NCBI RefSeq assembly: GCF_004010195.1
Contig: NC_057759.1
Span: 7,365,593 to 7,429,592, forward strand
Reading direction: 5' to 3'
From: Chiloscyllium plagiosum
Taxonomy: Eukaryota
Length of the DNA stretch: 64,000 nt
Shown one piece after another: positions 6,494 through 49,074 of the stretch. The notes under the pieces are model-generated. The model was not told the origin of the DNA. It made no database searches and saw only the letters and a program-made list of their open reading frames with translations. The translations under genes and the position numbers were made by a program. How positions within the stretch are numbered: position 1 is the first letter of the stretch; every line of letters begins with the position of its first letter.

Positions 6494-6500
6494 TATAAAG
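6494..6500 (+). promoter_or_regulatory. TATA box of defensin copy 1
   Basis: TATAAAG starts 58 nt upstream of the ATG. The paralogous site TATAAG is at 22050-22055. Confidence 0.65.
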
Positions 6501-6551
6501 AGTTCCAATTCTCCAGGTAGTTCATAGTGCAGGAAAAGGTAATCAGCGGCC

Positions 6552-6645
6552 ATGAGAGCTTCCCTGTTCTTACTTCTTGGATTCTTGGTGATGGTGCAGC
6601 TGGGCACTGCTGAAGAAGGAGTGGAACCACGTCTTTTCTTTTCAG
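6552..6645 (+). CDS. Beta-defensin-like precursor, copy 1, exon 1 (signal peptide + acidic propiece: MRASLFLLLGFLVMVQLGTA-EEGVEPRLFFS)
   Basis: gcggccATG context, hydrophobic 20-aa signal ending G-T-A, consensus donor CAG|GTGAGT at 6646. The exon is 94 nt, giving a phase-1 intron. Confidence 0.88.
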
Positions 6646-7237
6646 GTGAGTCCATGTATCATCAAACATCGTTTAGAAGCATTCAGAAGGTCAGATGGAG
6701 GAGATTCATCCCCCTGAACACCACGTTCTCATCTGTAGTGTTTAGATTTACAAGTGCCTAAAATGAATTAGTTGACATGTACAAAATCTGTCCATGGGAT
6801 AGAGGCATCTCTGGCAAAACCGACATTTATTGGACCTTCCTAATGGCTCCAGAGGGCATTCAGTAGTCCATCACATTTCTGTGAATGTGGAGTCACATAT
6901 AAAGAAGAAAAGGGAAAAAATATCAGTTTACTTTCCCTGAAGGAAATGAGTGGAGTAGGTGTTTCTTACTTCCTTTACACAATTTGAACATGATCCGAAC
7001 TTCATTCCCTTCCATTGAGAGATTCGAAGACAGGTCCTCAGAATAGTTAGTCATGGATTGTGATTCTAGTGACAGTTCTGCATGTCCACCATCCAATCGC
7101 ATGACATTTGGTGAAGCAGTGCGGTCATTTCCCAGGAGTGCAGAATTTATTTTAGTTCACAACCATTTGTGCTGGTTTCTTGTTCACTAGAATTATTTCA
7201 CCATTTCATCAATTGCCTCCTCAACTTTACTTTCCAG

Positions 7238-7362
7238 GTGCAACCGTTGGCTGCGTAACCACTGGAGGAAAGTGCAGATTAGGAGGTTGTAAAGAGGGGG
7301 AAATCCAGCTGGAAGAGAAATGCTTAATACTTCTCAAGTGCTGCAAAGTTGACTTAAATTGA
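7238..7362 (+). CDS. Beta-defensin-like precursor, copy 1, exon 2 (GATVGCVTTGGKCRLGGCKEGEIQLEEKCLILLKCCKVDLN*)
   Basis: Polypyrimidine tract and tttccAG acceptor ending at 7237. Splices in frame to exon 1 (72-aa precursor). The C-x6-C-x4-C-x10-C-x5-CC spacing fits the beta-defensin signature, including the common GG-x-C before Cys2. Confidence 0.9.
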
Positions 7363-7494
7363 ATTGTGAAAATGTAATGCGGGCTACCAAGGTTCATCTG
7401 AGACTGTGGCTGAAGCTAACTGCTGTCTCTGTAATTTATTCGCTCTTGACTGTGTACATCCCCATAAAACCTTCTCCATTTCAATTGAATCGTG

Positions 7495-7500
7495 AATAAA
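7495..7500 (+). terminator. Polyadenylation signal AATAAA of defensin copy 1
   Basis: AATAAA about 130 nt after the stop codon, conserved in copy 2 at 23059-23064. Confidence 0.7.
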
Positions 7501-12856: not shown

Positions 12857-13112
12857 GGAGAAAGTGAGGTCTGCAGATGCTGGAGATCAAAGTTGAAACT
12901 TTATTGCTGGAACAGCACAGCAGGTCAGGCAGCATCCAGGGAACAGGAGATTCGACGTTTCGGGCACAGGCCCTTCTTCAGGAAGGGCCTTCCTGAAGAA
13001 GGGCCTTCCTGAAGAAGGGCCTTCCTAAAGAAGGGCCTGTGCCCGAAACGTCGAATCTCCTGTTCCCTGGATGCTGCCTGACCTGCTGTGCTGTTCCAGC
13101 AATAAAGTTTCA
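12857..13112. mobile_element. Penelope-like element end, long inverted repeat with tandem 17-mer core, 16-bp TSD
   Basis: Inverted arms about 90 nt long; core of cttcctgaagaagggc repeats; actttgggtgtgggaa at 12841-12856 and 13113-13128. Confidence 0.8.
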
Positions 13113-13940: not shown

Positions 13941-14063
13941 GGAAGGGCCTGTGCCCGAAACGTCGAATCTCCTGTTCCCTGGATGCTGCCTGACCTGCTG
14001 TGCTGTTCCAGCAATGAAGTTTCAACTTTGATCTCCAGCATCTGCAGACCTCACTTTCTCCCC
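13941..14063 (+). mobile_element. Penelope-like element end, single arm
   Basis: gaagggcctgtgcccgaaacgtcgaatctcc ... cctcactttctcc, same family as 12857 and 17410. Probable ggagagg TSD. Confidence 0.75.
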
Positions 14064-17000
14064 GGAGAGGCTGAACATGCTGGGGTTATTTTCCCTGAAG
14101 TGTCGGAGGCTGAGGGGTGACCTTATAGAGATTTACAAAATTATGAGGGGCACGGATTGCGTAAATATGCAAAGTCTTTTCCCTGGAGTCGGGGAGTCCA
14201 GAACTAGAGGGCATCGGTTTAGGGTGAGAGGGGAAAGATATAAAAGAGACCTAAGAGGCAACTTTCTTTCACACAGAGGGTGGTACGGGTATGGAATGAG
14301 CTGTCAGAAGCAGTGGTGGAGGCTGCAACATTTGCAACATTTGAGAAGCATTTGGATTGGTATATGAAAATGAAGGGTTTGGAGAGATTTGGGCCGGCTG
14401 CTGGCAGGTGGGCCTAGATTGGGTTGGGATATCTGCTCGGCATGGACGGGTAGGACCGAAGGATCTGTTTCCATACTGTACATCTCTATGACTCTGTGAC
14501 TCTGTAACCCATAACATCCACCGGCACTATCCACAACCCTGCCTAACTGTGTGTCATCAGCAAGTTTATGAAACCATTCTTCTACGCCACATACTTTACA
14601 CAAATGACAAATAAAAGATAGCCAAAAACAGATCCTTACAGCACACCACTGATAACTGATCTTCAGGATGAACATTTTCAATCAACCCGCTGATTTCTTT
14701 CAGCTAACGAATTTCTGATCCAAACCGCTAAATCACCTTCAATCTCGAAACGCTGCATTTTGTGCAATAGCCTACCGTGTGAAAGCACACAAACGCCTGG
14801 CTGAAGTTAATATGCACACATCGGCCGCTTTGCCTTCATTCACCTGTTCTGTCACCTTCTGTAAGAACTCAGTAAGGTTATTAAGGCATGACCAACCCTT
14901 CTCAAAACCGTGTTGACTATCCATAATCAAATTACTCCTTTCCAGATGATACAAATATTATCTCTTATAACATTTTCTAACACATTACCCAGAACTGAAG
15001 TAATTCTCTCTGACCTATACATATCAGGTTTAAGCCGAGTCCCCTTCTTAAAGAAGGGTACAGCATTTGCTGTCGTCCAGACATCTGACACTCCTCCTGC
15101 CGACAATGAACCATTAAGATCAAAGCTAAAGTCTCTGCCATCTCCTCCCTGGCTTCCCAGAGAATCCGAGCATAAATCCCATCCAGTCCAGGGGGCTTAT
15201 CTATTTTCAAAATTCTCAAAATTGCTGAAATCTCCTCTTTGTCAAACACAATATCATCTAATCTAGAACCTTACCTATCCGTATTGTTACTAACATTGCC
15301 CTTTTCCAATGTGATTACTGATAAAAAGTCTTCACTAAGCTCTTCCCCTATGTCCTTCGTTTCCACGCAAAACTTCCCACTACTATCTTTGATTGGCCTA
15401 ATATTCCTCTAGTCGTTCTTTAATTCCGGATATTCCTATCAAACGCTTGGAACATTCCTTGATCTTATCCAGCAGCAACTTCTCATATCCACTCCTGGCT
15501 CTTCTTAGCCCTCTCTGTGTATCATTTCTGGCTAACGTATAACTCTTAAGCCACCTATTTGAGGCTACACACTTTATCCTCACGTAAGCCATCTTCTACC
15601 TCCTGAGAAGAGCTTCAACTTCTTTAGTAAGCCATGGTTGATAGGTATTTACTTATCAAGGACCCGCTATAGCAACTTCTTAACAAGCTCCACAGTTCAC
15701 GTGTGTCCATTCCCTGCAGTTTCCTTCCCCATTCTATGCTTGTTAAATCTTGCCTAATCGCATCACAATTGTCTTTCTCCCAATTATCCCTCTTTCCCTG
15801 CTGTACATACCCATCCCTGTCCATTGCTAATGTAAACATAACCGAATTGTGCTCACAATCGCCAAAGTGCTCACCGACGTCCAAATCTAACACCAGGCCG
15901 CGTTCATTCCCCAGTACCAAATCCAAAATGGCATCGCCCTTTGTTGGCCTGTCTACATACTGTGTCAGAAGACCCTCCAGCACAGATTGAGTAGAAACTT
16001 ACACATCTAAAATACTTGAACTGTATTATTCCCAGTATATATTGGGGACGTTTATGTCCCCATACCAACTACCCTGTTACTCTCGTTCCTATCGAGAATC
16101 ATCTTTGCTATCCTTTTTTCTCCACCTTTGGAACAATTCAGAAGCTTATAGAAAACTCCCAATAGTGTGACTTCCCCTTCCCTGTTGCTAACCTGAGCCC
16201 AAACTATCTCAGTACTCGAACATTATCTCAGCTGCTGTAATACTAACCTTGATTAACAATGCCAACCCCTCCACACCAGCCTCAACCCCTTTTATCATCT
16301 TCGCTGTTCTTACTGAAACATCTACTTAGCGGAATCTGCAACAACCATTCTAGGCCCTCCTCTAGCTACGTCTCTGAAGTAGCCACAACATCGAAATCCC
16401 AGTCACCAAACCAGGCTGCAAGTTCACTCATCATATTCTGAATTTTTCTGGAATTTACATACACACATTTCAATTCAAAAACCTAATTGCAGGTGCCCTA
16501 TCGCGACCTCTAATCCTATCCCTGACTTCTTTACCCTCAACCTCCTGTACATTGGAATTACAATTCATATTGCCATCTGCCTGCTGCATTATTTTAAAAC
16601 ACCTCCCCCGAAGACCATTAACAATTCTGCCCCCAGCCCAATGATATTGGTACCTCTCTGGATTATTTGAAGACCATCCTGTTTTAGAAGAGCCACCTTC
16701 CCCAGAAAGTGCACAAATTATCGCCGAATCCAAAAACCTCTCTTCTATACTATTCCTGCAGCCACATGTTCAGCTCCGCTCTTTCCCTGTTGCTCGCTTC
16801 ACCCGCAGGTGGGACGACCAACAAAACAGAGATAAAACCTCTGTTGTTCTAGCTCGAAGTTTGCACACGAGCTCCCCGAATTTCTGCCTGAGATACCATC
16901 TATCTTCCTACCTTCTTTGTGGGTGCCAATATGGACCACGATTTGGGCCTGCTCCCCCTTCTCCGAAAGGGTCACAAAATCACGATCAGGGATATTACGA

Positions 17001-17409
17001 ACCCTGACACGTGGGAGGAAACACACCGACTGTGAGTCTCTATCGTTCCCACAAAACCTCCTACCTGTCCCCCGACAATGAAATCGCCAATGACAAAAAC
17101 TCTGTTCCTCTTCCCCTTCCCCTCTGAGCAACAGAGACAGACTCTGCGCCAAGAGACCTGCACCCTATTGTTTTTCCCTGGTAAGTAACCCAACACCCAA
17201 CAGTATCCAACACGGTATTGATGCTGTTAAGGGGAACCACCACATGACTTCCCTGCACTTGCAGACACTCTACCTTCTTCACGCGACTGTGGAGGAACTA
17301 CCTTCATGTAACTCCTCTCAGTAACCGCCTTCTCCTCCTCAGTTATCCAAAGAAAATCCAAATGAAACTCCAGTTCCCTCAATGAGCTGGAGTTGGTTGG
17401 GCATCACAC

Positions 17410-17562
17410 TTCTCCTGCTGAACACTCTCTGCTCATTCCTGAAGAAGGGCCTGTGCCCGAAACGTCGAATCTCCTGTTCCCTGGATGCTGCCTGACCTGC
17501 TGTGCTGTTCCAGCAATAAAGTTTCAACTTTGATCTCCAGCATCTGCAGACCTCACTTTCTC
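17410..17562 (+). mobile_element. Penelope-like element end, 8-bp TSD
   Basis: Same family sequence; catcacac at 17402-17409 and 17563-17570; empty paralogous site at ~33395. Confidence 0.78.
17435..17470 (+). ncRNA. Minimal type-I hammerhead ribozyme motif
   Basis: attc-CTGAAGA-a-gggc(ctgt)gccc-GAAA-cg-TC-gaat. Stem I attc/gaat, stem II gggc/gccc, conserved core, vestigial palindromic stem III. Confidence 0.7.
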
Positions 17563-18099
17563 CATCACACAAATGAAGTCAGCAGGGACAATAGAGATGA
17601 CCCTTACCTCCAACATTCTGCAGGAGGAACATTCAACTGCCATAACCTCCAATCATACTATTCTAAATACCCAAACAGATCACTGAAATAAATGAAACAC
17701 GAAGAAAAAGCACTTGCTACCTTCCCAACAGACGCACAGACCTTTTATTTTCATTAGAGGAGAAGGATAGATGGGAGACATTAAACAAATAGTCTTTTGG
17801 CAAAAGCAACAGCCCAAATATGTAACCTCGTGAACTCTCTGACAGACGTCAGGATCTCAAGAACAGGGGACCTAAAGTGAATTAACTTAGATTGTATACA
17901 CACTTATCCCGACAGGATCCACTGCTTCCTGGTGACCTTGCAGCATCTCCGACACACTCCAGGAACTATATTATAAGAAAGATGGTATCACGAAGTCTGT
18001 TCTTGAACTATCTCTATCAAAAGGAACAAGGCTTTTTTCAAACAGATAAGACAAAGCATCGACAAATCAGCAGCAAGTGACACACGGTTTAGAAGAAGC

Positions 18100-20700
18100 G
18101 GTTAAAGAGTAGACTGGTGGCACAGTGTGAAACATTCTTTAACTCTCTGGGTGGAATGAGTGTTCCAGAGAAACTGGAGAACCTCAAAGTGGGACATGTC
18201 TTCATGAAGGTCGTGGGACAGAAAACAAGAGACTACAGGCCATTCAGCCTGACAATTATGATTGGAAATATGCATCATTCTGCTATTCAGGAAGGAATTG
18301 CATATCATTCTAAAAAGCTTAACGCAATCAGATGCAACACGCTTTTGTGAAATGGGAATTTTAATTTGCACAGAAATATCATGCAAATTCTTGCAACATA
18401 TTTGATGAGAACAAAACCAGCAGATTTGGTGAAAGGAAAATGGATAGACCGCGAATTGGGTTTTCAGAATCTTTCAATATGGTTCTTAACATAACAAAAG
18501 AAAGGTTCTTACACAAGACAGAGGCTCATAATCTGACAGAAAATGTAACGGATGGATTTAGGATTTTTTAACACAGGAAAGATGGAGAGTCGGGATTAAT
18601 GGGTCTTTATGTGATTGAAAAGATACTTCTGCCAGAGTACTACAAATATCAGTCCTGTAGCAGCAGTTATTTACAATCTATACTTATGGCTTGAAGGCAG
18701 GGGATGAGTGCATTATATCCGAGTTTGTGGATGTCACAAACATATGTGGAAGTCCATATGGCAGTAAGGATGTAAGGAATCTGAAAGGGGAGGTAGATAA
18801 TGTCACTGAGAGGGCAAATAATTGGCAAGTGGAGAGTATGGTGTTAAAAAATGCATGAGATCCTCCACTTTACCCGTGAGGTCCCAAACGGCAGGCTGTT
18901 ACCGAATGGAGAATACTCGGAAAAAGAAGTGCAGTATAAAGGGATTTGGCTTTTATGTGTATGAAACATAAAGTTAGCGTGGAGGTGCAGCAAGTAATTC
19001 GGGGGAGTCATTAGGTTTTTTTTTGGTAAGAAAGTGCTTTTTTATCAAGAACAAATTACTTGTGGGGCTTCCCAAAGTAAGTGTTGAGAATGTAGTTCAA
19101 CTCCTGTGCAGAATCTCAAACTCGGGGCATAGACAGAGAATCAGCAAACTTAATTTAAAATTGACATGCAGAGAAATGTATTTTCTTCAGAACTTAGTGA
19201 GTGTCTGGAATTGCATAACCCAGAGAGTTGTGGCGGCTGGGTTATGGAAAGTCTTTACAGATAGAATGGATGGGTTTTTGACATATTGGCTTGTTGAGGG
19301 ATGCCCGGCGTCGGCAGGAAAGTGGAGTTGAGCCTTGATGTAGGTCAGCAATATGCTTATTTAATGACAGGTAGACTTGAGGAACCCAATAGACTACCCC
19401 TGTTCCTATTTCATACGTTATCACGCTCAGTTATTGGAAAGCAACTAGTTACTTTCCTGCAAGTCACGTTGTGCAACAATGCATTGACGGAGAGCAGAGG
19501 ATTAGAGTGAGCGAACCTTGTGTGGGGTATGGTGGCTGTATTCACAGTAAACCTGGGATTGCAAAATGGCTCACATTGGGAGCAGAGAGGAGAAGCCTGG
19601 AAAGAGGGATTGTGGTGTTGGGGGTGGCACGATTTTTCTTAGCCAGCAGAGATTTCTAACTGCATTTTCCGACCCTACACCTAAGGTTAGGAGTGGCCTC
19701 GGTCTGCTCCAGTGTAGCAGGGTGGAAGGGTAGAATGGAAAATCAGAACATAGGGCTAAGGGTCCCAAGTGAGCCATTCGGCCTATTGATACTGCTGAAC
19801 GAGTAAATAACTTCATGGCTAATCCCATTATGCTCTCAGCTGCACTTTTCTGTAAAGCCCCCATCATCCCTTATTGACCTGTCTACCAAATGTCGAACTA
19901 AGTTCGCCTTGATATAATATAAAGATTGAGCCATCACAAACTTCTGGGAAAGAGAATTCCCACTTGAATGAATTCCCAACTTGTGAATTTCTCCTCATTC
20001 CGTTTTCCCGTCCCATTTATCCTCTGGTCACAATAGATTTTAACTGTAACCGGATTGGTGATATGGTCAATGATAAAGTTTCAGACTGGCTCAGGTTCAG
20101 TGATAGGAACAAGTCAGGCAGATTTCTTTAGTCAACAACAAATAGTAGGCTAATTCCTGATGTGAGCTGCCGCTACAAATGTACAAAGCCTAATGACGAC
20201 AAATTTGGATGATAAAAACATCCAACGAGTCTCCAACTGATCCATTCTCCTCAAATTACTGTATGACATTATAAGATCACCTGTCATTTCAAGGGTTAAA
20301 CCCCATAATATAAGCCCTTCAATCCGGGAGTAAATGAAGTGAAACATCTCTGAACAGTTTCTAAAGTAACTATATCCTTTCTCAGTTCAGAACACCAAAC
20401 ACACTTCACACACAGTTCTAGGGATGTGTTCTCAGTCAGACTGGTGCAGCTGCAGAAACGCGCCCTTTCCACAGGGTTGTTTAAAAATACACCCAGCTGG
20501 CGCATTTTACATCTTTTTTTTCTTTTATATATTATCTTCAATTTATTACTGTGACGAGAACATTTATTTTCTTTTCTCAGAGTGCTGTGAGACTTGTTGG
20601 AAATTCTCTTCTCAGACAGCATTGGAGGCAGAGATACGGAACATTTCTGAGACACAGAGAGAAAGTCTCATGGATACAATGGAGTCAAGGATTATGAGGG
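18100..20700. mobile_element. Highly decayed CR1 fragments (+ strand ~18100-19400, - strand ~19750-20700)
   Basis: Remnant peptides DYRPFSLT, FLQNLVSVWN, LETVQRCFT. Confidence 0.65.
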
Positions 20701-21422
20701 AGTGGGCAAGAACGTGCAGAGTGGGTGAAAAATGCAGACAATGCTACTAAATGAAACTGCATTTTACCAGAGCAGCCAGAAATATAATGCAAGATGAAAT
20801 GATAACTTTAAAATGCTGGAAGTGATGGAATTATGTTGCTCTCGTCCCAGAGAACCGTCAGGCAGACCAATTATGGTGGTTGAACCTGATTGGCACCACT
20901 CCTCCAGTGTGGAGGTGAGGTTGAGAAACCTGGCCCTTCATAGTAACCTCTGTCAGTGTGGGAAATTGAACCTGCGCTATTGACCTTCCTCTGCATTAGA
21001 AACCAATCATCCAGCCAACAGAGTGGGAGACTATGCAACTGTTATGGACAGAAATAGTCAAAGACAAATGGCAATATAAACTTGGATAAGAAGGAAGAAG
21101 CTACGAGTCAGACAATATTCATGATAAAGGCTCACTGAGATATTACAATACTTTCAATATTGTATTGCTGGAGACAATTCATATTCTGCACACTGATGAG
21201 TGCTATGATTCTAAGACATCGCATTGTTGTCCAAACGACGCAGGTTATACACTGTTGCCTGTCCAAAAATCAGTGATCATACACCTTAGATATTATGTTA
21301 CCATATGCAGAACTGATGAGTTTCTAAATGTCCTCCAGGGAAGGAAACCAGCTGCATGGGATTACAAACTCACTGCAATGTGCTTGTCTTTTTAATGTCC
21401 CACTGAATGCTTGGAGGTTCGT

Positions 21423-21727
21423 GGGCGGTACGGTGCTACAGTGGTTAGCACTGCTTCCTCACAGCGCCAGAGACCCGCGTTCAATTCCCGACTCAGGCGA
21501 TTGACTGTGTGGAGTTTGCACATTCTCCCCGTGTCTGCGTGGGTTTCCTCCGGGTGCTCCGGATTCCTCCCACAGTCCAAAGATGTGCAGGTCAGGTAAA
21601 TTGGCCATGCTAAATTGCCCGTAGTGTTGGGTAAATGTCGGGGAATGGGTGGGTTGCGCTTTGGCGGGTCGGTGAGGACTTGTTGGGCGGAAGGGCCTGT
21701 TTCCACACTGTAAGCAAGTAATCTAAT
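21423..21727 (+). mobile_element. tRNA-derived SINE (HE1/V-SINE type)
   Basis: A-box/B-box head (cagtggttagcactgc ... gttcaattcc), V-domain tgtgtggagtttgcacattctccccgtgtctgcgtgggtttcctccggg, CR1-like 3' tail. Absent at paralogous ~6150. Confidence 0.92.
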
Positions 21728-22107
21728 GCTAGAGATGCACCGTACACTTTGATCGCCACGTCGACTGGATGAACAAGAAGAGCATTTAAGTTATAATTTA
21801 AGATTATCAGTTCCGGAACGATGGTCGGATACTAGCCCTCCTTATTTGATTATACTTAGCTGAGTAACTGCAGAGAATTCCCACTGATTTTCACCAGGTT
21901 AGTCATGATTCATTTCTGTCCCTCCACTAACAAATCTCCTTAATCTGAGTACATGATTCACTGATGAGCGAAATGGTCCTTTCTCATACACATCACGGAA
22001 TCGTTCCTTGCTTTTGCAATTATTAACAGCAATGTAGTTTGTGTTATCCTATAAGGAGTTCCCATTCTCCAGGTAGCTCACAGTGCCGAAAGAAGAAATC
22101 AGCGGCC

Positions 22108-22923
22108 ATGAGAACTGCCCTGTTCTTACTTCTGGGATTCTTGGTGACAGTGCAGCTGGGCACTGCTGATGAAGGAGTGCAACCACTTCTTCTCTTTCAA
22201 CGTGAGTCCATGTCTCCCCAAACATCCTTTAGAAGCATTCAGAAGGTCAGTTGAATCTGATTAGTTCCCTGAAAACTACATTCACATCTGTCGTGTTTAG
22301 ATTTACAAATGTCTAAAAAGAATCAATTGATACCTCCAAAAACCGGCCATGGAATGGACGCATCTCTGGCAAAGCTAACATTTTTTGTACCTTCCTAATG
22401 GCCCCAGAGGACATTCAGAAGTGAAACACGTTTCTGTGACTCTGCAGTCACATATAAAGAAGAAACGATAAGAACATCAGTTTACTTTCCCTGAAGGATA
22501 TGAGTTGAGTATTTATTTCCTATTTTCATTTCACAATTTAAACGTCATTCAAACTTCATTACTTTCCATTGAGAGATTCGAAGACAGGTCCTTAGAACAT
22601 GAGCTTGTTAATTCTGGATTCGATTCTGGTGACAGTCCTGCAAGTCCACCCTCCAGTCTCACGGCATTTGGTGAAGCAGTGCAGTTATTTCCCATGAGTG
22701 CAGAATTCATTTTAGGTCAGAAGCATTTGTAATGTTGTATTTTAGATTAGAATTATTTCACCATTTCATCAATTACCTCCTCATCTTTGCTTTCCAGATT
22801 GGCGCAACCGCTGCGAACAGTCTGGAGAGGTATGCAAGGTTGGAGAATGCCCAGAGGGTCAAAGTCGAGGTGGAAGGGAACTGCTTATTGCTTCTCAAGT
22901 GCTGCAAAGATGTCTTAAATTGA
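22108..22923 (+). pseudogene. Beta-defensin-like copy 2, join(22108..22201,22798..22923), +1 frameshift near 22860 (pseudogene or base-call error)
   Basis: Exon 1 is MRTALFLLLGFLVTVQLGTADEGVQPLLLFQ with donor GTGAGT at 22202; acceptor tttccAG ends at 22797. Exon 2 is 126 nt versus 125 in copy 1. Removing one base gives HWRNRCEQSGEVCKVGECPEG(K/Q)VEVEGNCLLLLKCCKDVLN*. Confidence 0.85.
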
Positions 22924-24751
22924 ATCGTGAAAGGGTAAATGTGCGGGCTACCAAGGTGTGTCTGAGACTGTGGCTGAAGCTAGCTGCTGTCTCTGTAATT
23001 TATTGTCTCTTGACTGTGTACGTCCCCAAAAAACCTTTTCCATTTCTACTAAATCGTAAATAAAGCCCTCACTGTATTGCTCACATGTCGTGCCACGAGT
23101 CTTCTTACAGACTGTGCGCAGTATGAATGATATTGTCGCTACTTTGGGGAGTGGAGGTGGAAGAAAGTCCAACAAAAGCAGATACGCAGTCGCCTCTGTT
23201 GGCTGCAAACTAGCCTCCTTCAGAATCTTACATTTTGAGTCCATAGCGAATGACAAACTAATATTGTCTCAAGTATGAGCAGGTGTATAATAAGCAACTC
23301 CTTCCATTTCCATGGTCACTTTCAACCAAAAGGTGAACGGCAACAGATACACAGGAATTCCACCACCCTGCTAGTTTCTCTCTGATCCACTCACCGTCCT
23401 GATTTCGAAATGTATAAGCTGTTACTTATGTTTCATCAAAATCCGAGAATTTGCTCCCAATCGTTTCGTTGTGGGCCCCTTCACAGCACCCGGCCAGCAA
23501 ATGGTTCAAGTAGAAGTTCACTCGCATCCCCAAACATTCTCAAACGGACAACTGTGACGAGCGACAAATAACTGAACGGCCAGCGTCACTCAAGACGCAT
23601 CAGTGAAAAGAAATCATGGGTTAGTGAATTCAGTGAAGTTGTGCTTTTCGGGGAATTAATCTCTGGGATGTCCTTCCCTACCACACCCCGCTTTCATCTG
23701 ACTGCAACTCTGTCTTGTTGCCTACTACTGAGTCGTTTTCCATCCTTCTGTTCTCTTTGACTCTCAAGACTCGACTGTGAAACTGTTCAATTGTTACAAA
23801 TGTTCATAAATGAATGCAAAAACTAGATTCCTCACGCATGTCGAGCACTGTAAATCCTCGAGCTGACGCTTACTGAAAGAAAGCAATAAGGAGTGAAACG
23901 AAGAGAGAAGGAAATAAAAAAAGAAAGAAGAGAGAGAGAGAGAGAAATAAATAAAGGAAAAACGAGGGAAAATAAACAACCACCCAACCAAAGGAAGAAA
24001 GAAAGAAATGTTCCTACTGAGTTCTGTCAACAGCTCTCACATTGTGGTGGAGAAATGTGCTGGTATCAGAACCAGCATCTGCACACGTCACTGTATTGTA
24101 CAGTATAAATGGATGAATACCACCGCAATACCAAAATTACCCTCACATCCCCGAATAAAACGTGAACAAACATGGAAGAAGTCTACCGACTTCCCCCTAA
24201 CTTTAGATCAGTTTGTCAATGCTATTAAAGAACAGTCTACTAACGTAGCACACCTACAGTGCGGAAACAAGTCATTCGGCCGAGCGAGGTCTCTCCATAG
24301 CTTCAAAGAGCAGCCTTGTGGACACAGTGATGACGTGAAAACTCCACACAGATATGCACCAAGAATGGAACTGAACGCAGCAGAACCCAACCCCATGCCA
24401 TCCCTGGAGGACAGCCGGACCAATGTGACTGCGGTTGTTTCATGCTCCAGGTGGACTGGGTTATCGGTGTGAACCACTTGAGATGGTTGCCTGAATTGAT
24501 GTCGCATTAAAAAAGCAAACATTGAATGTTTGTGCGGTGATGTAGGGAGTACAGCGGAGCATGGGATTCCATCTTTCTGGACGCAGGACGGACTGAGAGA
24601 TAGGAAACTCTTAGATTTTGAGTCATCATGTTGTAAATCACTCACTTAAAGGTTTTGGCATTGCATGGAGAGGTGGTCACAGAGTGACACACACACACAC
24701 AAACAGTCACAGACACGTATGTACACACAAGGAAAACACACGCATACTCAC

Positions 24752-24847
24752 CTTCTTCTCAATCTACATTGAAATAGGGATATGAGAAAGGGTATGGGCA
24801 CTGTTTGAATAGCAAGGCCAGCTTTGATAATTTGGCTTTCACTCTGC
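24752..24847 (-). other. Candidate 96-nt internal exon (antisense to the defensin), product unknown
   Basis: Minus-strand polypyrimidine tract with ttcttCAG acceptor and AAG|GTGAGT donor. Both sites are conserved in unit A (11040 and 9113), and one frame is open in both copies. Confidence 0.4.
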
Positions 24848-25254
24848 CTGAAGAATTGAGGGGAAGCAAAGAAAAAAACACACTATGGTCAGTCCCTCAT
24901 GGGAGAGAAGAAGTATGAAACATTATCGAGAGAAAGAGTTAGCTTCCAATGCAATCATGATTGTCAGCTTGTCATTCTCTCACATGTCTTTCCTTAACTC
25001 CTGTTTGTCTTCGTTTGACGTTCCCCTTTTCCAACTTCCTGTCGTTATCTGTTGGTCTCTGCATTTCTCTTTCTCTCTCGGACTCTGTCTCTCTTTCTTG
25101 TTCAATGTCTGTGTCTTTCTCTCTGACGCTGTCTTGTTCTGTGTCCCTTTCTATCTTTCTCTCTCTGTAACGCTCTCACATACATCCCCGCTCCACTCCT
25201 ACACCTCATCCTGCTTTATTTCAATCTCTCGCTTCTATTTCTTTCTCTCCAGAT

Positions 25255-28160
25255 ACCACAGTCAGGGCAGGCAGGGACAAGGTAGGACGAATAGATTAAA
25301 CTGCACTTATTTCAATGCAAGGGGCCGAACAGGGAAGGCAGGTAAAGTCAGGGCATGGTTAGCAACATGGGACTGGGATATCATAGCAATTACAGAAACT
25401 TGGCTCAGGGATGGGCAGGACTGGCAGCTTAATGTTCCAGGATACAAATGCGACAGGAGTGATAGAAAGAGAGGCAAGACTGGGGGGGGGGGGGGGGGAG
25501 TAGCATTTTTGATAAGGGATAGCATTACAGCTGTGCTGAGGGAGGATATTCCCGGAAATACATCCAGGGAAGTTATTTGGGTAGAACTGAGAAATAATAA
25601 AGGGATGATCTTCTCATTGGGATTGTATTATAGACCTCGTAATAGTCAGAGGGAAATTGAGAAACAAACTTGTAAGTAGATATCAGCTAACTGTAAGAAT
25701 AATAGGGTAGTTATGGTAGGGGATTTTAACTTTCCAAACAGCGACTGGGACTGAACAGAGTGTTAAAGGTTTAGATGGAGAGCAATTTCTTAAGTGTGTA
25801 CAAGACAATTTTCTGATACAGATTGTGGAAGTACCTACTATAGAGAAGGTGCAAAACTCGACCTACTCTTTGGAAATAAGGCAGGGCAGGTGCCTGAGGT
25901 GTCAGTGGGGGAGCACTTTGGGTTTTAAAATAATGATAGAAAAGGATAGACCAGATCTAAAAGTTGAATTTCTAAATTGGAGAAAGGCCAATTTTGACGA
26001 TATTAGGCAAGAACTTTCGGCAGCTGATTGGAGGCAGATGTTCGCAGGTAAAGGACGGCTGGAAAATGAGAAGCCTTCAGAAATGAGGTAACAAGAATCC
26101 AGAGAAAGTATATTCCCTTCAGAGTGAAAGGAAAGGCTGGTAGGTATATGGAATGCTGGATGACTCAAGAAATTGAGGGTTTTGTTCAGAAAAAGAAGAA
26201 AGCATATGTCAGGTCTTGACAGGATTGATCGAGTGAATCCTTAGAAGAGTATAAAGAAAGTAGGACTATACTTCAGAGAGAAATCAAAAGAGCAAAAAGG
26301 GGACATGAGATAGCTTTGGCAAATAGAATTAAGGAGAATCCAAAGGGTTTTTACAAATATATTAAGGAAAAAAGGGTAACTAGGGAGAGAATAGGGCCCC
26401 TCAAAGATCAGCAAGGCGGCTTTTGTGTGGAGCCACTGAAAATGGGAGGGATACTAAATGAATGTTTTGTATCAGTATTTGCTGTGGAAAAGGATATGGA
26501 AATTACAGACTGAAGGGAAATAAATGGTGACATCTTGCAAAATGTACAGATTGCAGAGGAGGAAGTGCTGGATCTCTTGAAACAGGAAAAGGTGGATAAA
26601 TCCACAGGACGTTATCAGGTGTACCAGAGAACTCTGTGGGAAGTCAGAGAACTGATTGCTGGGCCTCTTGATGAGATATTTGTATCATCAATAGTCATAG
26701 GTATGGTGCCGGAAGACTGGAGGTTGACAAAAGTGGTGCCATTTTTTAAGAAGGGTGGTGAAGACAAACCAGGGAAGCATAGACCTGACCTCGGTGGTGG
26801 GCAATTTGTTGGAGGGAATCCTTAGGGACAGGATGTACATGTATTTGGAAAGGCAATGACTGATTAGTGGTATTCAACATGTCTTGGTGCGTGGGAAATC
26901 ATGTCTCACAAACTTTATTGAGTTTCTTAAAGCAGTAACAAAGAGGATCGATTTGGGCAGAGCAGTAGATGTGATCTATATGGACTTCAGTAAGGCGTTT
27001 GACAAGGTTTCCCATGGGAGACTGGTTAGTAAGGTTAGATCTCATGAAATACAGGGAGAACTTGCCATTTTGATACCGAACAGGCTCAAAGGTAGAAGAC
27101 AGGGGGTGGTGGTGGAGGGTTATTTTTTAGACTGGAGGCCTGTGATGGGTGGAGTTCCACAAGGATCGGTACTGGGTCTTCTACGTTTTGTCATTTACAC
27201 AAATAATTTGGGTGCGAGCATAATAGGTACAGTTAGTACGTTTGCAGATGACACCAAAATTGGAGGTGTAATGTACAGCGAAGAGGGTTACCTCAGATTA
27301 CAACAGGATCTGGACCAGATGGGCCAATGGGCTGAGAAGTGACAGATGGAGTTTAATTCAGATAAATGCGAGGTGCTGCATTTTGGGAAGCAAATCTTAG
27401 CAGGACTTGTACACTTATTGGTAAGGTCCTAGGAAGTGTTGCTGAACAAAGAGACCTTGGAGTGCAGGTTCATAGCTTCATGAAAGTGGAGTCGCAGGTA
27501 GATAGGATAGTGAAGAAGACGTTTGGTATGCTTTCCTTCATTGGTCATAGTATTGAGTACAGGAGTTGGGAGGTCATGTTGCGGCTGTACAGGACATTGG
27601 TTAGGCCACTGTTGGAAAGTTGCATGCAATTCTGGTCTCCTTCCTACCGGAAAGATGTTGTGTAAGGTGAAAGGGTTCTGAAAAGATTTACCAGGATATT
27701 GCCAGCGTTGGAGGATTTGTGCTATAGGGAGAGGCTAAACAGGCTGGGGCCGTTTTCCCAGGAGCGTCGGAGGCTGAGTGGAGACCTTACAGAGGTTTAC
27801 AAAATTATGAGGGGCATGGATAGGATAAATAGGCAAAGTTATTTCTTTGGGATCGGGGAGTCCAGAACGAGATGGCATAGGTTTAGGGTGGGAAGGGAAA
27901 AATAAAAAAGAGACCTAATAAGCAACCTTTCCAAACAGAGGGTGATGCGTGTTTGGAATGAGCTGCCAGAGGAAGTGATGGAGGCTGGTGCAATTGCAGC
28001 ATTTAAAAGGCATTTGGATGGGACTATGAATCGGAAGGGTTTGTAGGGATATGAGCCAGGTGCTGGCAGGTGGGATTAGATTGGGTTGGGATATCTGGTC
28101 GGCATAGACGGGTTGGACCGAAGGGTCTGTTTCCATGCTGTACATCCCAATGACTCCATG
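25255..28160 (+). mobile_element. CR1 LINE, near-complete ORF2 with stops and frameshifts
   Basis: LNCTYFNARG, DIIAITETWL, YMDFSKAFDKV, GVPQGSVLG, FADDTKIG motifs and 3' tail. Absent from unit A. Confidence 0.95.
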
Positions 28161-29908
28161 ATTCTTTTTATCCTTGTTTTCACGTTCATTCTCTTGCTGT
28201 CCCTTTCTCTTAAATATTCTAGCCCCCATCTTTATGTCTTTCTATTTCATCAGCTTTCCTTCCATATTTCTCTCCTTCATTCTCTCCTAGACTCGAACTA
28301 TTTCATTCGTTTTTTCTGTTGATCTCACTTAAATCGCTTTATCTCTCTGTCACACTTCTACATTTGTCTCCAGTTTAATATATCTCATTTTGTTCTTTGC
28401 ATTGTTAGCTCTGTCTGACACTTTTTTCCCCGGTGTCTCATTGTTCACTCTGTCTTGTTTTTCCCCTGCCCCTTGCTTCATTTTCTCTTCCTGTCTTTTG
28501 TCTGTCGTACCAGGAAATGGAAAAACAGAAATGACAGAGCAAGAGAAACTGGGAGAATGGAGTTTATCTCTGAACGATTAGAACGAAACAGGCATTTCAA
28601 TTGCAGAATTCTGTCGATTCTCTGGTCTAAAATAGTGTGTGAAAATAGACAGAGGTGAATGTCAGTGGATGTGTGGGGGGTACTTTTAAGCAGCTATTTC
28701 ATAACACGCAGCAATGATTGACTATAGGCAAAAAGAAAGACTCGAGAAAAAGATGAACCATCAATGGTGCACAAAAGCTGTCAAGGTTATAAACCAATCA
28801 CAAATTAAAGAATTCAGGTTGACAAGCAATAGTGTCGACCGAATTTGGGATGTTTATTTTCGGAACCAGAAACAGATAATACAGAGCAAAATGAAAAGGA
28901 AAAGCATAAAATTGACAAGAAATGTATAAGCCAGCTGCAGGAGCGTTTCCATACAGAATTAAACAAAATCCAATGTGGGTGTGACCCTTGAAAAAAGCTC
29001 AGGGTAGCATAAGTGGGACAGCTGGAGGATGGAACTGGGGTTTGATTTCAGGGAACAGGCAAAGAATTGACTCCAATATTTTACATCGTTCTTCACATGG
29101 GAAGTTACGAAGTTATTTCATAGAACATAAAATATAAAACAGAGAACGTTACAGAACACTACAGGTTCTTCGGCCCTTATGTCATACTGACGTGTCAATT
29201 TAATCTGATACTCATCGAATCTACACCGTTCCATTGTTGTCCATATATATGTCCAATGCCCATTTAAATGCCCTTAACGTCAGGGAGTCTACTACCTTTG
29301 CAGGCAGGCCGTTCCACGCCACTACTACTCTCCGAGTAAAGAAACTGCCCAATGTATCAGACCTAAATCACCCCTCAATTTTAAGATTCGTTCCCTCTAT
29401 GTGGCCTTCACCATCCGAGGAAAAAGGATCTCACTGTCCACCCAACCGAACCCTTGGATTATGTTATATGTCTCGATGAAATCACATCTTAATCTTCTTC
29501 TCTCCAACAAAAACAGTTTCAGTTCGCTCAGCCTTTCCTAATAAAACATTCCTTCCATTCAATGCAACACCCGAGGAAATCTCCTCTGAACCCTTTCCAA
29601 AGTTTCCACATCATTCCTACAATGTGGTGGCCAGAACTGAACACAATACTCCATGGGCGGTCTTACCAGTATCTTGCACACCCGAAACCAGTCACCCTAC
29701 CAATGAAAGCCAACACACTGTATGCCTTCTTGACAACTCTATCAGCCGGGGTGGAACATTTCAAGGATTTATGCACGTGGACAAAGTTATCTCTTTGTTC
29801 ATCTGCACTGCCAAGAATTTTACAATTAGGCCAGTACCCTGCATTCCTGTTGCTTCTTCGGAAGTGATCTCACTCACACTTTTCTGCGTTAAACTTTATT
29901 TACCACGT

Positions 29909-30219
29909 GGGCGGCACGGTGGCACAGTGGTTAGCACTGCTGCCTCACAGCGCCAGAGACCCGGCTTCAATTCCCGACTCAGGCGACTGACTGTGTGGAG
30001 TTTGCACATTCTCCCCGTGTCTGCGTGGGCTTCCTCCGGGTGCTCCGGTTTCCTGCCACAGTCCAAAGATGTGCGGGTCAGTTGCATTGGCCATGCTAAA
30101 TTGCCCGTAGTGTTAGGTTAAAGGGGTAAATGTAGGGGTATGGGTGGGTTGCGCTTCGGCGGGTCGGTGTGGACTTGTTGGGCCGAAGGGCCTGTTTCCA
30201 CACTGTAAGTAATCTAATC
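29909..30219 (+). mobile_element. tRNA-derived SINE (HE1/V-SINE type)
   Basis: Same family as 21423; inserted in the CR1; absent at paralogous ~12592. Confidence 0.92.
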
Positions 30220-30644
30220 TTCTCAGCCCAGCTCTGCATCTTGTCTATGTCGCTCTGTAATCCATAACATCCGTCGGCACGATCCACAACTCTGCCTACC
30301 TATGTCCACATCCATATCATTTACAAAAATGAGAAGCAGAAGAGAGCCAAAAACAGATCCTTGCGGCACATTACCGAGAACTGACCGTCAGGATGAACAT
30401 TTTCCATCAATCACCACCCCCTGACTTCTTCCAGCTGCACAATTTCTGATTCAAATCGCTAAATCACCTCCAATCTCGAAACTCTGTATTTTGTGCAATT
30501 GCTTACTGTGCGGAAGCTTATCAAATGCTTCATTGAAGTTAGTATGCCCACATCAGCCGCTTTGGCTTCATTCACCTGTTTTGTCACCTATTTGAAGAAC
30601 TCAATAAGGTTATTGAGGCACGGCCTACCCTTCTAGAAACCGTG

Positions 30645-30885
30645 GTGAAAATGTGTTACTGGAAAAGCGCAGCAGGTCAGGCAGCATTCAAGGAACAGGA
30701 GAATCGACGTTTCGGGCATAAGCCCTTATTCAGGAATGAGGAAAGACACTTTCCTCATTCCTGAAGAAGGGCTTATGCCCGAAACGTCGATTCTCCTGTT
30801 CCTTAGATGCTGCCTGACCTGCTGCGCTTTTCCAGCAACACATTTTCAGCTCTGATCTCCAGCATCTGCAGTCCTCACTTTCTCC
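30645..30885. mobile_element. Penelope-like element end, inverted-repeat form, hammerhead motif at 30757-30792, 14-bp TSD
   Basis: Inverted arms about 95 nt long around gacac; ctgaaga-agggc-ttat-gccc-gaaa-cgtc; ttctagaaaccgtg/ttctaaaaaccgtg flanks; empty site at ~14900. Confidence 0.82.
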
Positions 30886-33800
30886 TTCTAAAAACCGTGT
30901 TGACTATCCCTAATCAAATTACTCCTTTCTAGACGATATAAATCTTATTTCACAATATTTTCCAACAACTTAACCAGAACCGAAATAAGTCTCACTGATC
31001 TTTCATTATCAGGTTTATCCCGACTCCCCTTCTTTAACACCGTAACAACATTTGTTGTCCTCCAATCTTCTGACACTAATCCTGTCGACATTGATGGCAT
31101 AAAGATCAAAGCCAAAGGCTCTGTAATCTTGCCCCTGGCTTCCCAGAGAAGCCGAGCGTAAATGCCATCCAGCCCAGGGGTCTTATCTATTTTCAGATTT
31201 TCCAAAATTTCAAAAACCTCTTCGTTGTCATCCACAGTCTCACCCAATCTATTAGCCTGCATCTCCGTATTCTCACTAACATTGCCCTCCAACGTGAATA
31301 CTGATAAAAAGTCTTCATTAAGCGCTTACCCTATGTCCTCAGTTTCCAAGCATAACATTCCACTACTATCTTGGATTGGCCTAATCTTCCTCCAGTCATT
31401 CTTTAAATCCTGGTATTCCTATGAATACCCTTCGAGCTTTCCTTGATCTTATCCAATAGCAATTTCTCATATCCACTCCTGAATCTTCTAAGTATTCTGT
31501 GTGGGTCTTTTCTGGCTAACGTATAACTGTCAAGCCCTGTAATCCAGACTTCACGCCTTGTTCTCACATAAGCCTTCCTCTTCCTATTTACAAGAGCTTC
31601 AACTTCTTTCGCAAACTATGGCTGATAGGTGTATACTTATCAAGGACCCGTAGTAGCAACTCCTTGAACAAGCTCCACATTTCATGTGTGCCCATCCCCT
31701 GCAGTTTCCTTCCCAATCCTATGCATGTTAAATCTTGCCAATCGCATCATAATTGCCTTCTCCTGCTATCCTTCTTGCCCTGCGGTATATACCCGTCTCT
31801 GCCCATTGCTATTGTAAACATAACCGAATTGTAATCACGATCGCCAAAGGGCTCACTACCTCCAAAACTAACACCTGGCCGCGTTCATTCCTCAGTACCA
31901 ATTCCAGTATGGCATCGCCCCTTGTTGTCCTGTCTACATACTGTGTCAGAAAGCGCATTGAACAGAAACTTACCCATCTAAACTACTTGAACTATATTAT
32001 TCACAGTCAATATTGGAGATGTTAAAGGCCCCCATAAAAACAATTCTGTCACTCCATTCCTGTCGAGAATCATCTTTGCTATTCTTTCCTCTATATCACT
32101 GGAACAATTCGGAGGCCTGTAGAAAACCCCCAAGAGGGTGACCTCTCCTTCCCTGTTTCTAACCTTAGCCCAAACTACCTCAGTCGATTAGTCCTCAAAC
32201 GTTTTCTCAGCTGCTGTAATACTACCTTTATTTAACAATGCCAACACCCCCTCTTCCCAGCACACCCCTTTTAGCATCTTCTCTGTTCTTACTGAAACGT
32301 CTAAATCCCAAAATCTACAATAACCATTCTCTCCCTCCTCTAGCTATGTCTCTGAAGTAGCCACAACATCTAAATCCCCGGGATCAATCCCTGCTGCAAG
32401 TTCACCAACCGCATTCTGGATGCTCCTTGCATTTAAGTACACACATTTTAGACCAAAATCCTGATTGCCAGTGCACTCTCGCGACCTTGTAATCCCACCC
32501 CTGATTTCACTATCCTCAAACCCCTGTTCACTGGAACTACAGTTCAGATTCCCATCTCCCTGCTGTATTAGTTTAACCCCTTCCCCCGAAGAACATTAGC
32601 AACTCAACCCCCTATCCCCAGAATACGGGTACCCCTCTGGTCCATGTGAAGTCCACCTTGTTTGTAGAGGTGCCACTTTTTCCAGACAGAGCTCCAATTT
32701 TCCAAGAATCAAAAACCGTCAGTTCTGCACCATTTCTGCTGCCACATGTTCAGCTCTGCTCTAACCCTGTTTCATACTTCACTAGCAGGTGGCACGGACA
32801 ACAAACCAGAGATACTAATCTCTGTTTGTTCTCGCTCTAAGGTTCCACCCTAGCTTCCTGAATTTCTGCCTGCGATTCCCACGTTTCTTCCTACCAACAT
32901 CGTTGGTATAAATATGCACCACGACTTGGGCCTGCTCCCCCTCCGCCGCAAGGATCGCAAAAACAGGATGAGGGACATCACGAACCCTGGCACCGGGGAG
33001 GCAATACACCGAACTTGAATCTCCATCTTTCCCACCGTCCCCTTAAATATGCAGTTCCCAATGACTAAATCTCTGTTCCTCTTCTACCTTCCTGTCTGAG
33101 CAGCAAAGACAGTCTCTGTGGCCGACGCCTGTGCCCCATTGCTTACCCTTGGTAATTCCCCCACCCGAAACAGTATCAACATGGTATATTTGTTGAGGGG
33201 AACCACCACAGGAGATCTCTGTACTTGCTGCCAATTCCCTTTCCTACTCCTGACCCCTCTACTTTATTCACATGGCTGTGGATGAACGATCTCCATATAA
33301 CTCCTCTCAATAACTGCCTCAGCCTCCCGAATGATCTAATCTTCATCCATCTCTCGATCCAGCTCCCTCAATGAGCTGGAGTTGGTTGGACTTCCCACAA
33401 ATGAAGTCAGCAGCAACTTTAGAGGTGACCATTACCTCCCACATACTGCAAAAGGAACATTCAACTGCCCTAACCTCCAATCCCACTAATCTAATTTCCC
33501 CAATAGACCGCTGAAAAAATGAAACACGAAAGAAAACACATGCCACCTTCTCAACTGACGCACAGAACATTTATTTTGGTTTGAGGAGGAGGAAAGGTGG
33601 GTGACATTACCCGAATAGTGTTTCTGATAAAGCAGCTGCCCAAATCTGTAACCTTGTGCACTCTCTGAACGACGCCAGCAAATAACGATCACCGAACCTA
33701 AAAGTAAGTAATTTGTACAGTATACTCACGTATCCTGAGAGACTCCGCTGCTCCCAGGTGACCTTGTAACATCTCCGACAGACTCCAGGACCTAAAGAAC

Positions 33801-36800
33801 ACCGGACCTAAAGTTAGTGATTTATACAGTATACTGACATATCCTGACTTTATCCGCTGCTCTCTGGTGACCTCGTAACATCTCCGACAGACTCCAGGAA
33901 CATATATTCAATAAAATAAGCAGGATGGAAATAGGACTATAGTTCTTGAACTGTCTCTAACAAGAGGAACAAGGTTTCTCTTAAACAGAGAAGACCAAGG
34001 GTATACATATCAGCAGCAACTGACACATAGTTTTAGAAGAAGTGGTTACAGAGTGACCACATGGCACTAAGGATGTAAGGAATCTGAACGGTAATATCTA
34101 TAATGTCAGTGAGAGGGCGAATAATTGGCCAATAAAGTTTATGGTTAAAAAAAAAAGGATGAGGTCGTGCATGTTAACCCTGAGAGCAAAAAGGGCAGAC
34201 TGTTAGTGAATGCAGAAAACCCCAAAAAGAAGTGCAGTACAACTCATTGGGGTGTTCCTGCATAAGAATCATAAAGTTAGCACATTGGTGCAGTAAGCAA
34301 CTCGGCTGAGTCATTAGGTTTATTCTTGGAATGAAAGTGTTAATTTATCAAAAACATCTAAAATGTTTCGGCATTTATTCATTGTAATTGAAGTGAATGA
34401 GGGGTAATATTACTGAAATGTACAAAATCCAGATGGGGCTTGCGAAGGTAGATGTTAAGAATGCGGTTCTACCCCTGGACTGAGTCTCAAATTCAGGGAG
34501 ATGGATACAGAATAAGCGATGTAGATTTAAAATTGAGATGCAGAGAAATGTCTTCTGTCAGAAGATAGTGATTGTCTGGAATTCCCTTACCCGAAGAGTT
34601 GTGGCAGATAGGTCACTAAAATTCTTTACATATAGAGTGGATGGGTTTTTGACATATTGGTGATTTGAGGGATGCAGGAAAGTGGAGTTGAGAAATGGAG
34701 TAGGTCAGCCATTTCTTTTTTAATGACAGGGCTTCGACAATTGAGAGTAAGTGGGAGTTAAATATTTGAATTTTCAGAAGAAGTTTGACATGGTTGAATA
34801 CGGGTGAGTGGACAATGTTAGGTTCAGTGGGTAGGTAGGGAAGGAATGCATGCCATGTGGATAAAAATTGGGTAATGTACAAAATGAAGACCGTATGTTT
34901 TTTGTCCTCTGGACGGAAGGATTGTGGGGTATCAGAACGACCAAGGCTCTAATAATACCTGCTTGCAAGGTATAAAAATGATTCCGATCTGAACAACGTA
35001 CATGATGATTCTAATTTATGTTCATTAAACAGGGAGAGCTTGCGAAGTGCTGTTGTTAAAAAGGGCCTTGGTTATAATTCAGTCGCAGAATTCATGCAGG
35101 CCCGTAAGTAACAATAACTGTAAATGATATGTGGTCCTTCATGCAAAATGATTAAGGTATCAGAGTAAATATGTCTTAGTGAGTAGTAGTGTGTTTTGAG
35201 AGATTGTTTGGGATTTTCTGTATAGATTTGGTCTGCTTTATAAATAATAATCTCCATGTCAACGAGACAGTGTAAATGAGTTTCAACAGACTAGACCCTG
35301 GTATGACGTTAGCATGAGAACAGAGTGAAGTAGCAATGTGTTTAATCTTCAGCGCTGTGAGAGAATAAGAATTTGAACATTGATGGTTATGGACACACAC
35401 TCAGTATGTCCCAAACAACCATAGAATGCAAGAAATTCCATTCTGTCCGTAGGATGGTTGGTTCCCAATATTTTACGTGCCTGCACAGAGAGGTATAGGC
35501 TTTGAATGCACTCTGGACATTTTATTGCACAGCAACTATGTGGCACTGCACTCAACGTTACATTGTTCCCAACCTGTCAGCAAACACAACGCCTTAATTC
35601 TGAAACAGTTAGCCTTTCCCCACCAGCTTGTGATTTCCAGAGAGAACATGGTTCTGCTCTCTCAGCGATTGAAGATGCTTTTGAGACTAGTTTAAAAAAA
35701 GCTTCATTCCCACTGCCAGAAAACCATGTTGAAGTAACTCGTATGTACCATGAGTAATGAAGCCACGAGGAACAACAGGGAACAGTCCATCTGCGCAGTT
35801 CCTGCTCCATTTGTTTCTGAAGTTGGAACATCTCTGACAGCTTCCTGTTCATGTGTTCGTGACTTGAGAAGCTGAATAACCTCTTCTTGTTTCTTTGTAA
35901 ATGATTCGAGGTTTGAAATGGCCTCGTTCTGATCCCGTGTAAGTGACCCGTGGAAGTGAGCAGACTGCTTGTCATCCCGTGTAACAAGCGGGAGGGACTG
36001 AATGGGCTGTTCTTCTTCATCCCCAATAGTATTGATGAGATGAATGACTTCTCCACATCCTTGTGAAGCCTAATGGAGGTACTGAATGATTTCCTTCAGT
36101 TTCGGTGGGAATGTGAAGAGTCTAGCAGCGCTGTCACATGAATGTTACCGACACTTTAACAGCCATAGCTTGACTGTTCTCCAGGCCTTGTTGCACATAT
36201 ACACAGACTGCATCAAGGGATGTTCGGGGACAAATTGTTCTGAACATTGTGCAACCTACAATAAATATCCACATTTCTGATCGGTGTGAACTCAATTTGC
36301 TGAATACTGCTTCCACACTGCCGGGATTCCACGATGACAAACAGGAGATGCCTGGGTTCAGGAAGCTACCCAGAGGATCTCCTGTACAGCTGTCCCACGG
36401 CTGAGGTGATTGATGTCCACCGATGATAAACATCCTCCATTGTACTTTGAATGACTCCAAAAAATGGGGAGTTTGCAATAGATTTTCATGAAGCACAATT
36501 TTGCTCAGGTTCCTTGATGTCATCCTCAGGTAAATACTGCCTTGATATCAGGGCCAGTTGTTCTTATGAAAGTCCTTGTGTTGACCTCTATTGCTCATAT
36601 CAGTTAGTCATGGTGTAGGATCATGAAGTGATTTCTTCAAAAAGAGGGCAACGAACGACAGGAATTGTCTGGGAACTTCCCTTCCTGTCTCTCATTATCC
36701 CTGACTCACTTCTCTTTTAAATAATTTAAGAGCGCAATTTGAAAAAAAAAAACGTAAACAGAGAGGCACCACAAACATTGAGGGAAGAGATTTCCCACTT

Positions 36801-49070: not shown

Positions 49071-49074
49071 CGCA

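Follow-up and report, generated by a model that had tools for sequence, protein, structure and literature searches.

A +1 frameshift, varying among public samples, in a beta-defensin-like gene of the shark Chiloscyllium plagiosum

Within a 64,000-nucleotide stretch of the Chiloscyllium plagiosum genome (contig NC_057759.1, positions 7,365,593 to 7,429,592; hereafter the window), a two-exon beta-defensin-like gene, g2, carries a single +1 frameshift past its third cysteine codon. The site of the extra base, an A, is polymorphic, since both states were found in public samples (three samples, whose contigs show presence and not absence). The variant is probably a loss-of-function allele that segregates in a gene of the beta-defensin family which worked until recently, the family being one that evolves by birth and death.

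The spliced frame of g2 as written encodes 119 amino acids (Table 1). All of the elements that an earlier note on this DNA had listed, namely the TATA-like site, the ATG, the splice sites, the six cysteine codons, the old stop and the AATAAA, were found in place, and translation does run, as it had claimed, through the 3' UTR to a TAA within the AATAAA. Exon 1 has a hydrophobic N-terminus, which we infer to be a signal peptide, and does not differ from exon 1 of the paralog L002 at any of its 94 positions, and the splice sites align across all four close paralogs. The gene is not a chance open reading frame, because 13 intact relatives have the same 94-nt phase-1 exon 1 and the same C-6-C-4-C-10-C-5-CC spacing. 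In g2 the codons of Cys4 to Cys6 sit one base off frame. Two routes of rescue by splicing were considered and rejected: a phase-0 join regains Cys4-6 and loses Cys1-3, and joining the phase-1 exon 1 to any of the AG sites checked by eye a short way 5' of the conserved UTR element leaves the tail out of frame.

Table 1. Positions in the window of g2, its parts and the tandem duplication around it.
Feature	Positions	Strand	Remarks
TATA-like site, TATAA (putative)	22050..22054	+	TATAAGG in g2, TATAAAG in g1; same position and sequence in L002 and L004
g2 coding exon 1	22108..22201	+	94 nt; ATG at 22108; phase-1 end; predicted signal peptide and short pro-piece
g2 intron	22202..22797	+	596 nt; GT-AG, phase 1; donor GT 22202, acceptor AG 22796-22797; predicted from sequence
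g2 exon 2, in-frame part	22798..22860	+	Cys1-Cys3 codons at 22812, 22833 and 22848
A run with the extra base (AA to AAA)	22861..22863	+	varies among public runs; L002 has CAA
Out-of-frame defensin remainder	22864..22923	+	Cys4 codon 22882; Cys5-Cys6 22900-22905 (codons 22900 and 22903); old stop TGA 22921-22923
Read-through frame	22863..23063	+	66 new residues; stop TAA 23061-23063; hydrophobic stretch ~22956-23024
Polyadenylation signal, AATAAA	23059..23064	+	aligned in 4 paralogs
Intact tandem paralog g1	6552..7500	+	72 aa; exon 1 6552-6645; exon 2 from 7238; stop 7360-7362; AATAAA 7495-7500
Second unit of old tandem duplication, carrying g2	21204..34730	+	first unit ~5942-19371; blocks 75-86% identical

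The earlier note was right that g2 has one extra base after Cys3, and wrong in naming C22860 as that base. L002 reads GGT CAA GTC where g2 reads GGT CAAA GTC, and the public contigs drop an A, which rules out the C. The extra base is one of the A's of the 22861-22863 run; with it the two A's in codon 21 of exon 2 become three, and the product loses Cys4-6.

Parts of the stretch around g2 are present in twenty public runs, of which we examined three DNA runs (X1, X2 and X3, which are different samples of one organism from two studies), and we added the RNA run X21; runs of two other organisms, with small shares of the stretch, carry no weight as evidence. The X1 contig spanning 22769-23250 is free of the extra base (5 other letters differ, depth 16.9 of 16.9), as is the X2 contig spanning 22769-22899 (0 other letters, depth 7.5 of 7.5), both having a single gap recorded at 22861 that leaves out 1 base. 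The X3 contig spanning 22747-22941 carries the base (no gap and one other letter different, at a depth of 4.1). The base-free state was thus found in two of the three samples, and the frameshift in one of the three and in the reference. These contigs were assigned to g2 because L002, the nearest assembled paralog, is far more different over the same spans (58, 19 and 20 letters for X1, X2 and X3, respectively) and because no near-identical second copy is assembled: a genome search gave four matches, none of them a second near-identical g2, so that no intact duplicate was found at another place in the assembled genome. There were no RNA runs among the listed public runs holding the stretch, and X21 gave 0 reads with about 2% of the run read, which is no test of expression.

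We infer a fully intact base-free reading frame in X1, whose contig has the five further substitutions noted above. In X2 the contig stops at 22899, short of Cys5-6, where a branch runs on into unrelated sequence as well. The carrier sample X3 may be the source animal of the assembly. Between the window and the g2-like contigs of X3, 6 of 669 letters differ, a sign of another haplotype though not necessarily of another animal.

Among the options that the earlier note had offered, a fixed gene death does not agree with the X1 and X2 contigs, which lack the base, nor a consensus error with the X3 contig, which has it; a segregating null allele fits best. The check it had proposed, in which reads without the base would make g2 a second intact gene, proved too simple, as base-free contigs were found but so was a carrier contig. 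The six cysteine codons, taken there as a sign of very recent death, are indeed kept; they are weak evidence of recency by themselves, because the short g2 branch (0.044 changes per site, with about 16 vulnerable sites) would often keep them anyway, and by our own arithmetic all six would outlast neutral decay about half the time.

Disabled and non-disabled versions are both present (X1 and X2 without the base, X3 and the window with it), the combination expected of a polymorphic pseudogene as the available part of PMC7392758 defines the term. If the allele is a segregating null, the insertion would have arisen by replication slippage. Transcripts whose stop lies in the last exon escape nonsense-mediated decay, and those with a stop ahead of the poly(A) site escape non-stop decay. 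The frameshifted mRNA would be spared both, its new stop lying in the last exon and shortly ahead of the poly(A) site. The product would enter the endoplasmic reticulum through its intact signal peptide, fail to fold and, most likely, be retained and degraded there. In beta-defensins the disulfides join Cys1 to Cys5, Cys2 to Cys4 and Cys3 to Cys6, so none of the three would be possible in the product because Cys4-6 are lost. Since many paralogs would buffer the loss, drift or weak selection could govern the allele.

The two states may be alleles or else near-identical copy-number variants, the contigs being short and unphased. An identity of 99-100% to g2, unlike that of any assembled paralog, and the lack of an assembled duplicate would agree with one locus, and other features of the same contigs hint at extra copies. 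A possible, if rather doubtful, reading is thus that g2 is a dead copy in a copy-number-variable array, that the base-free versions are near-identical duplicates of it and that the copies differ among individuals. It would account for an X2 3' contig (22870-23235) at depth 29 against 7.5 over the frameshift site, for L004-like contigs at depths of 50 (X2) and 37 (X3) against 7.5 and 4 for the g2-specific contigs, and for the 11 of 40 listed substitution rows that fit no assembled paralog. These figures suggest that the samples hold more copies than the assembly, with the proviso that contig depth is not copy number. An ambiguity between alleles and paralogs is also on record for macaque DEFB2L, in the part of PMC4255768 available. 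Against near-identical duplicates, the X1 contig runs unbroken from the intron to the 3' flank at 99% identity, and no X1 or X2 contig has the base and no X3 contig lacks it, a weak point since the records are filtered.

The same runs gave several observations on structure around g2. Over window positions 21953-22661 the L004-like contigs are 7-9 times deeper than the g2-specific ones in X2 and X3 and about equally deep in X1, and they bear exon-1 variants at 22111, 22130, 22132 and 22152 that are in no assembled copy; unassembled, copy-number-variable paralogs are the probable source of these contigs. At 22899, just before the Cys5-Cys6 codons, an X2 contig leaves exon 2 for at least 255 unrelated letters, and this loose end matched none of the 24 loci with which it was compared; a g2-like copy may here have been disabled by another insertion, independent of the frameshift. 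In X1 a contig breaks at 22102, six bases 5' of the ATG, into 63 unrelated letters, as in a rearranged or truncated copy. Another X2 contig is identical to g2 over 156 letters and runs at 22312 into the start of the tRNA-derived SINE seen in L002, a probably HE1-like element; this would be an intronic insertion in X2 that the reference lacks. HE1 SINEs are known from elasmobranchs and also from zebrafish (PMC2911107, in the part available).

The earlier note had called g2 a second defensin paralog. A paralog it is, but the count was understated, as contig C50 has four close copies, g2 among them, and the whole family numbers at least 23 loci. A search of the assembly with exon 1 gave at least 23 matches, on C50, C45, C46, C39, C16 and small contigs, and we examined 20 of the 23 loci, leaving out three. 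Besides g2 these comprised 13 intact loci, all with the invariant cysteine spacing 6-4-10-5-0, five broken ones and one truncated by a contig end, so that five of the 19 examined loci other than g2 are broken. Gene death is therefore common in the family. L022 is broken by a frameshift and a stop, and L011 by a ~220-nt repeat insertion in exon 2 (~2410-2650 in gene orientation) flanked by a 15-nt target-site duplication. L010, L015 and L021 have a common stop in exon 1. The close relative of L011, L009, lies 7.6 kb away, inverted and intact. The three loci with the common stop, which lie on C45, a small contig and C16, also share a lost donor, indicating that duplication or dispersal followed the death of the copy.

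In an intron tree L002 is the sister of g2 (support 98/97; branches of 0.046 and 0.044), and their exons 2 have 62% identity. Among the four close copies, differences in exon 1 amount to 0-14%. In all six pairs of these copies, g2-L002 included, the intron has diverged less (0.08-0.18) than exon 2 has at its nonsynonymous sites (pN 0.18-0.41), with Fisher p from 0.017 to 2e-11; the synonymous sites of exon 2 have likewise diverged strongly (0.13-0.49), and dN/dS within the exon is ~0.85-1.45. The sequences suggest positive (diversifying) selection on exon 2. In the 3' UTR, a block of ~27 nt (window 22961-22990) is conserved even between subfamilies whose exons 1 are only ~72% identical and is a possible regulatory element. 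Separately, g1 and L002 differ at 10 of 150 3' UTR sites (6.7%; window 7340-7520) and by 18% in their introns, a low UTR divergence for which gene conversion or UTR constraint is possible. The tandem duplication in which g1 and g2 lie is of ~13-15 kb. Elsewhere the window contains two satellite arrays (49072-51926 and 59811-64000, with units of ~65 nt and ~32 nt that are 60-80% identical) and near-perfect palindromes at 5145-5302, 12888-13118 and 30646-30848, which are head-to-head copies of short repeats with arms 94-96% complementary.

The placing of base-free g2 among the beta-defensins holds on its predicted gene structure, its cysteine spacing and the modelled fold of its sister paralog. 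Judged from sequence, a signal-peptide exon is followed by a mature-peptide exon, and six cysteines ending in CC with beta-type spacing (6-4-10-5-0) are found in base-free g2 and in the 13 paralogs. The frameshifted g2 product has Cys1-3 only and hence is not a beta-defensin. For L002, standing in for g2, the predicted exon-2 peptide (pLDDT 79) shows the expected helix and three strands in the order H-E-E-E. In a wide fold search of 48,161 chains with this model the top 8 rows were all beta-defensins, the best matches being hBD-2 (Z 4.5, rmsd 2.8 over 36) and AvBD3 (Z 4.3, rmsd 1.7 over 35), and Foldseek gave a TM of ~0.7 against hBD-1 with a non-significant E of 0.27. Low fold scores are to be expected because the peptide has only 39 residues. 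Venom peptides are also among the fold relatives, and nothing here points to a use in venom.

Sequence comparison placed the family close to known models and below their thresholds. Against Pfam PF00711, with a cut-off of 21 bits, g2 read through with an X scored 16.3 bits (E 0.01) and L002 17.5 bits, and g1 had no match; PF00711 was matched by 4 of 13 members and PF13841 by 5 of 13 (E up to 1). An Atlas search with g1 gave beta-defensin clusters at the level of leads (0.84). Protein searches found no relatives with exon 1 plus intron read-through (26-84 aa) and no match at E<=1 with a profile of the 13 members (21-79 aa). A profile search of 1.84 billion representative proteins gave two matches, both repetitive non-defensins, and PDB sequence searches gave only matches at E>0.8. 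The 13 paralog peptides are near neutral, with net charges of -2 to +3, and the base-free g2 exon-2 peptide has about -2 by hand count.

Past the frameshift the product acquires, as the earlier note had said, a basic and then hydrophobic tail, with a net charge of +12, three new cysteines, a hydrophobic window of 1.97 (Kyte-Doolittle) and a hydrophobic moment of up to 0.58, so that with Cys1-3 the product again totals six cysteines. A quite improbable reading takes the allele for a neomorph, a secreted or membrane-anchored cationic helical protein of 119 aa that would have an activity of its own and be maintained through balancing selection. Its most specific form, to which we give a similarly slim chance, is that the frameshift would act as a switch from a near-neutral, disulfide-locked defensin to a signal-peptide protein with a strongly cationic amphipathic helix and a hydrophobic segment of membrane length drawn from the 3' UTR, as a balanced polymorphism; if true, a new host-defence peptide would have been caught at birth. 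The expected escape from decay, the change in charge and the six cysteines would suit a new function, and the few differences of the X3 contigs from the reference would mean that the allele may not be brand new. In all four close paralogs, moreover, the UTR frame is open from the old-stop region to the AATAAA, and both UTR indels there are of 3 nt. Across the family, however, the alignment (15 of 16 loci anchorable) shows that the frame relative to the coding sequence shifts between subfamilies, with stops or non-triplet indels interrupting it in L009, L011, L017 and L019. The variable UTR columns of the close copies fall 7/8/11 by codon position, without bias, and 26 random changes would keep the frame open 31% of the time. 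A conserved overlapping reading frame in the 3' UTR was dropped as a candidate on these grounds. In all six pairs pN is below pS in the UTR frame, with small numbers, and weak constraint may act on it.

The modelled exon-2 part of the product speaks against a neomorph too, being helical at low confidence (pLDDT 60, pTM 0.30), and the transmembrane estimate for the tail is marginal (+1.2). Random read-through typically yields tails that are basic and hydrophobic. The long read-through is itself only mildly unusual: when 18230 stretches of 66 codons were sampled from the window, 1280 (7%) contained no stop. A protein search with the read-through peptide (47-153 aa) found no homologue, and an Atlas search with the tail gave no usable match. 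From the sequences, the tail is best read as inherited, translated 3' UTR without sign of coding constraint.

That the extra base is an error of sequencing or of the consensus at a short homopolymer, with g2 intact everywhere, is very unlikely and has barely any probability left to it: AA to AAA is a typical class of error, two of three samples lack the base and the sole carrier contig has a depth of 4.1 with its platform not on record, but that 195-letter public contig reproduces the base between ~114 and 80 flanking letters with one other letter different, and the same insertion would have to be re-created independently.

Compared with vertebrate beta-defensins (PF00711 and PF13841; hBD-1, hBD-2 1fd3, mallard AvBD3 7lzl, crocodile CpoBD13 7t9q), the shark family is alike in its two coding exons with the signal peptide in exon 1, its six cysteines ending in CC, the helix and three strands of the L002 model and its tandem birth-and-death clusters. 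It differs in its spacing, 6-4-10-5-0 against the usual 6-3/4-9-6-0, and in its near-zero charge, its Pfam scores below the cut-off and its lack of sequence relatives in the protein databases searched. A cationic charge is typical of defensins and not universal, according to the part of PMC10423725 available. The 2019 review PMC6795676, in its section 14, describes shark antimicrobial peptides as little studied and names there only transferrin, squalamine and kenojeinin (shark/skate). Our search for literature on shark beta-defensins found none, most subscription journals lying outside its scope, and in PMC10707392 the term is present in a reference only. We found no description of such a family in sharks in the literature and protein databases searched, which does not show its absence from print.

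Segregating disablement has precedents, described in the parts of the sources available. In humans, two common polymorphisms of DEFB126, rs11467417 and rs11467497 (PMC9809482), shift the frame in exon 2, so that there too an exon 2 of a beta-defensin is frameshifted in some individuals only. The DEFB126 variants differ in kind: a 2-nt deletion leads to a non-stop mRNA and a 4-nt deletion to a truncated C-terminus, whereas the 1-nt insertion in g2 breaks the cysteine core and brings a new stop within the AATAAA, upstream of any cleavage site, and so does not give a non-stop mRNA. Null alleles of Diptericin segregate in wild Drosophila melanogaster (PMC6857651), a likeness in that disabling alleles of an antimicrobial peptide persist in a population; Diptericin belongs to an unrelated peptide family, and its null alleles number at least six, follow a cline and carry a known cost, against one variant in three samples and the reference here. 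Beta-defensins also show birth-and-death evolution and copy-number variation, and the macaque case (PMC4255768) resembles ours in its recent duplicates, its diversification of the mature peptide and its alleles that are hard to tell from paralogs. The available part of that source describes no frameshift variant, and copy-number variation in the shark is suggested by contig depths alone.

Given the human precedent for segregating beta-defensin frameshifts, a segregating null allele of g2 is useful to the specialist and not surprising. Annotation based on the reference would score g2 as dead though the gene probably works in other animals. The break in g2 is real and polymorphic, and it can be typed directly as a mark of gene death still under way in a beta-defensin family of a shark.
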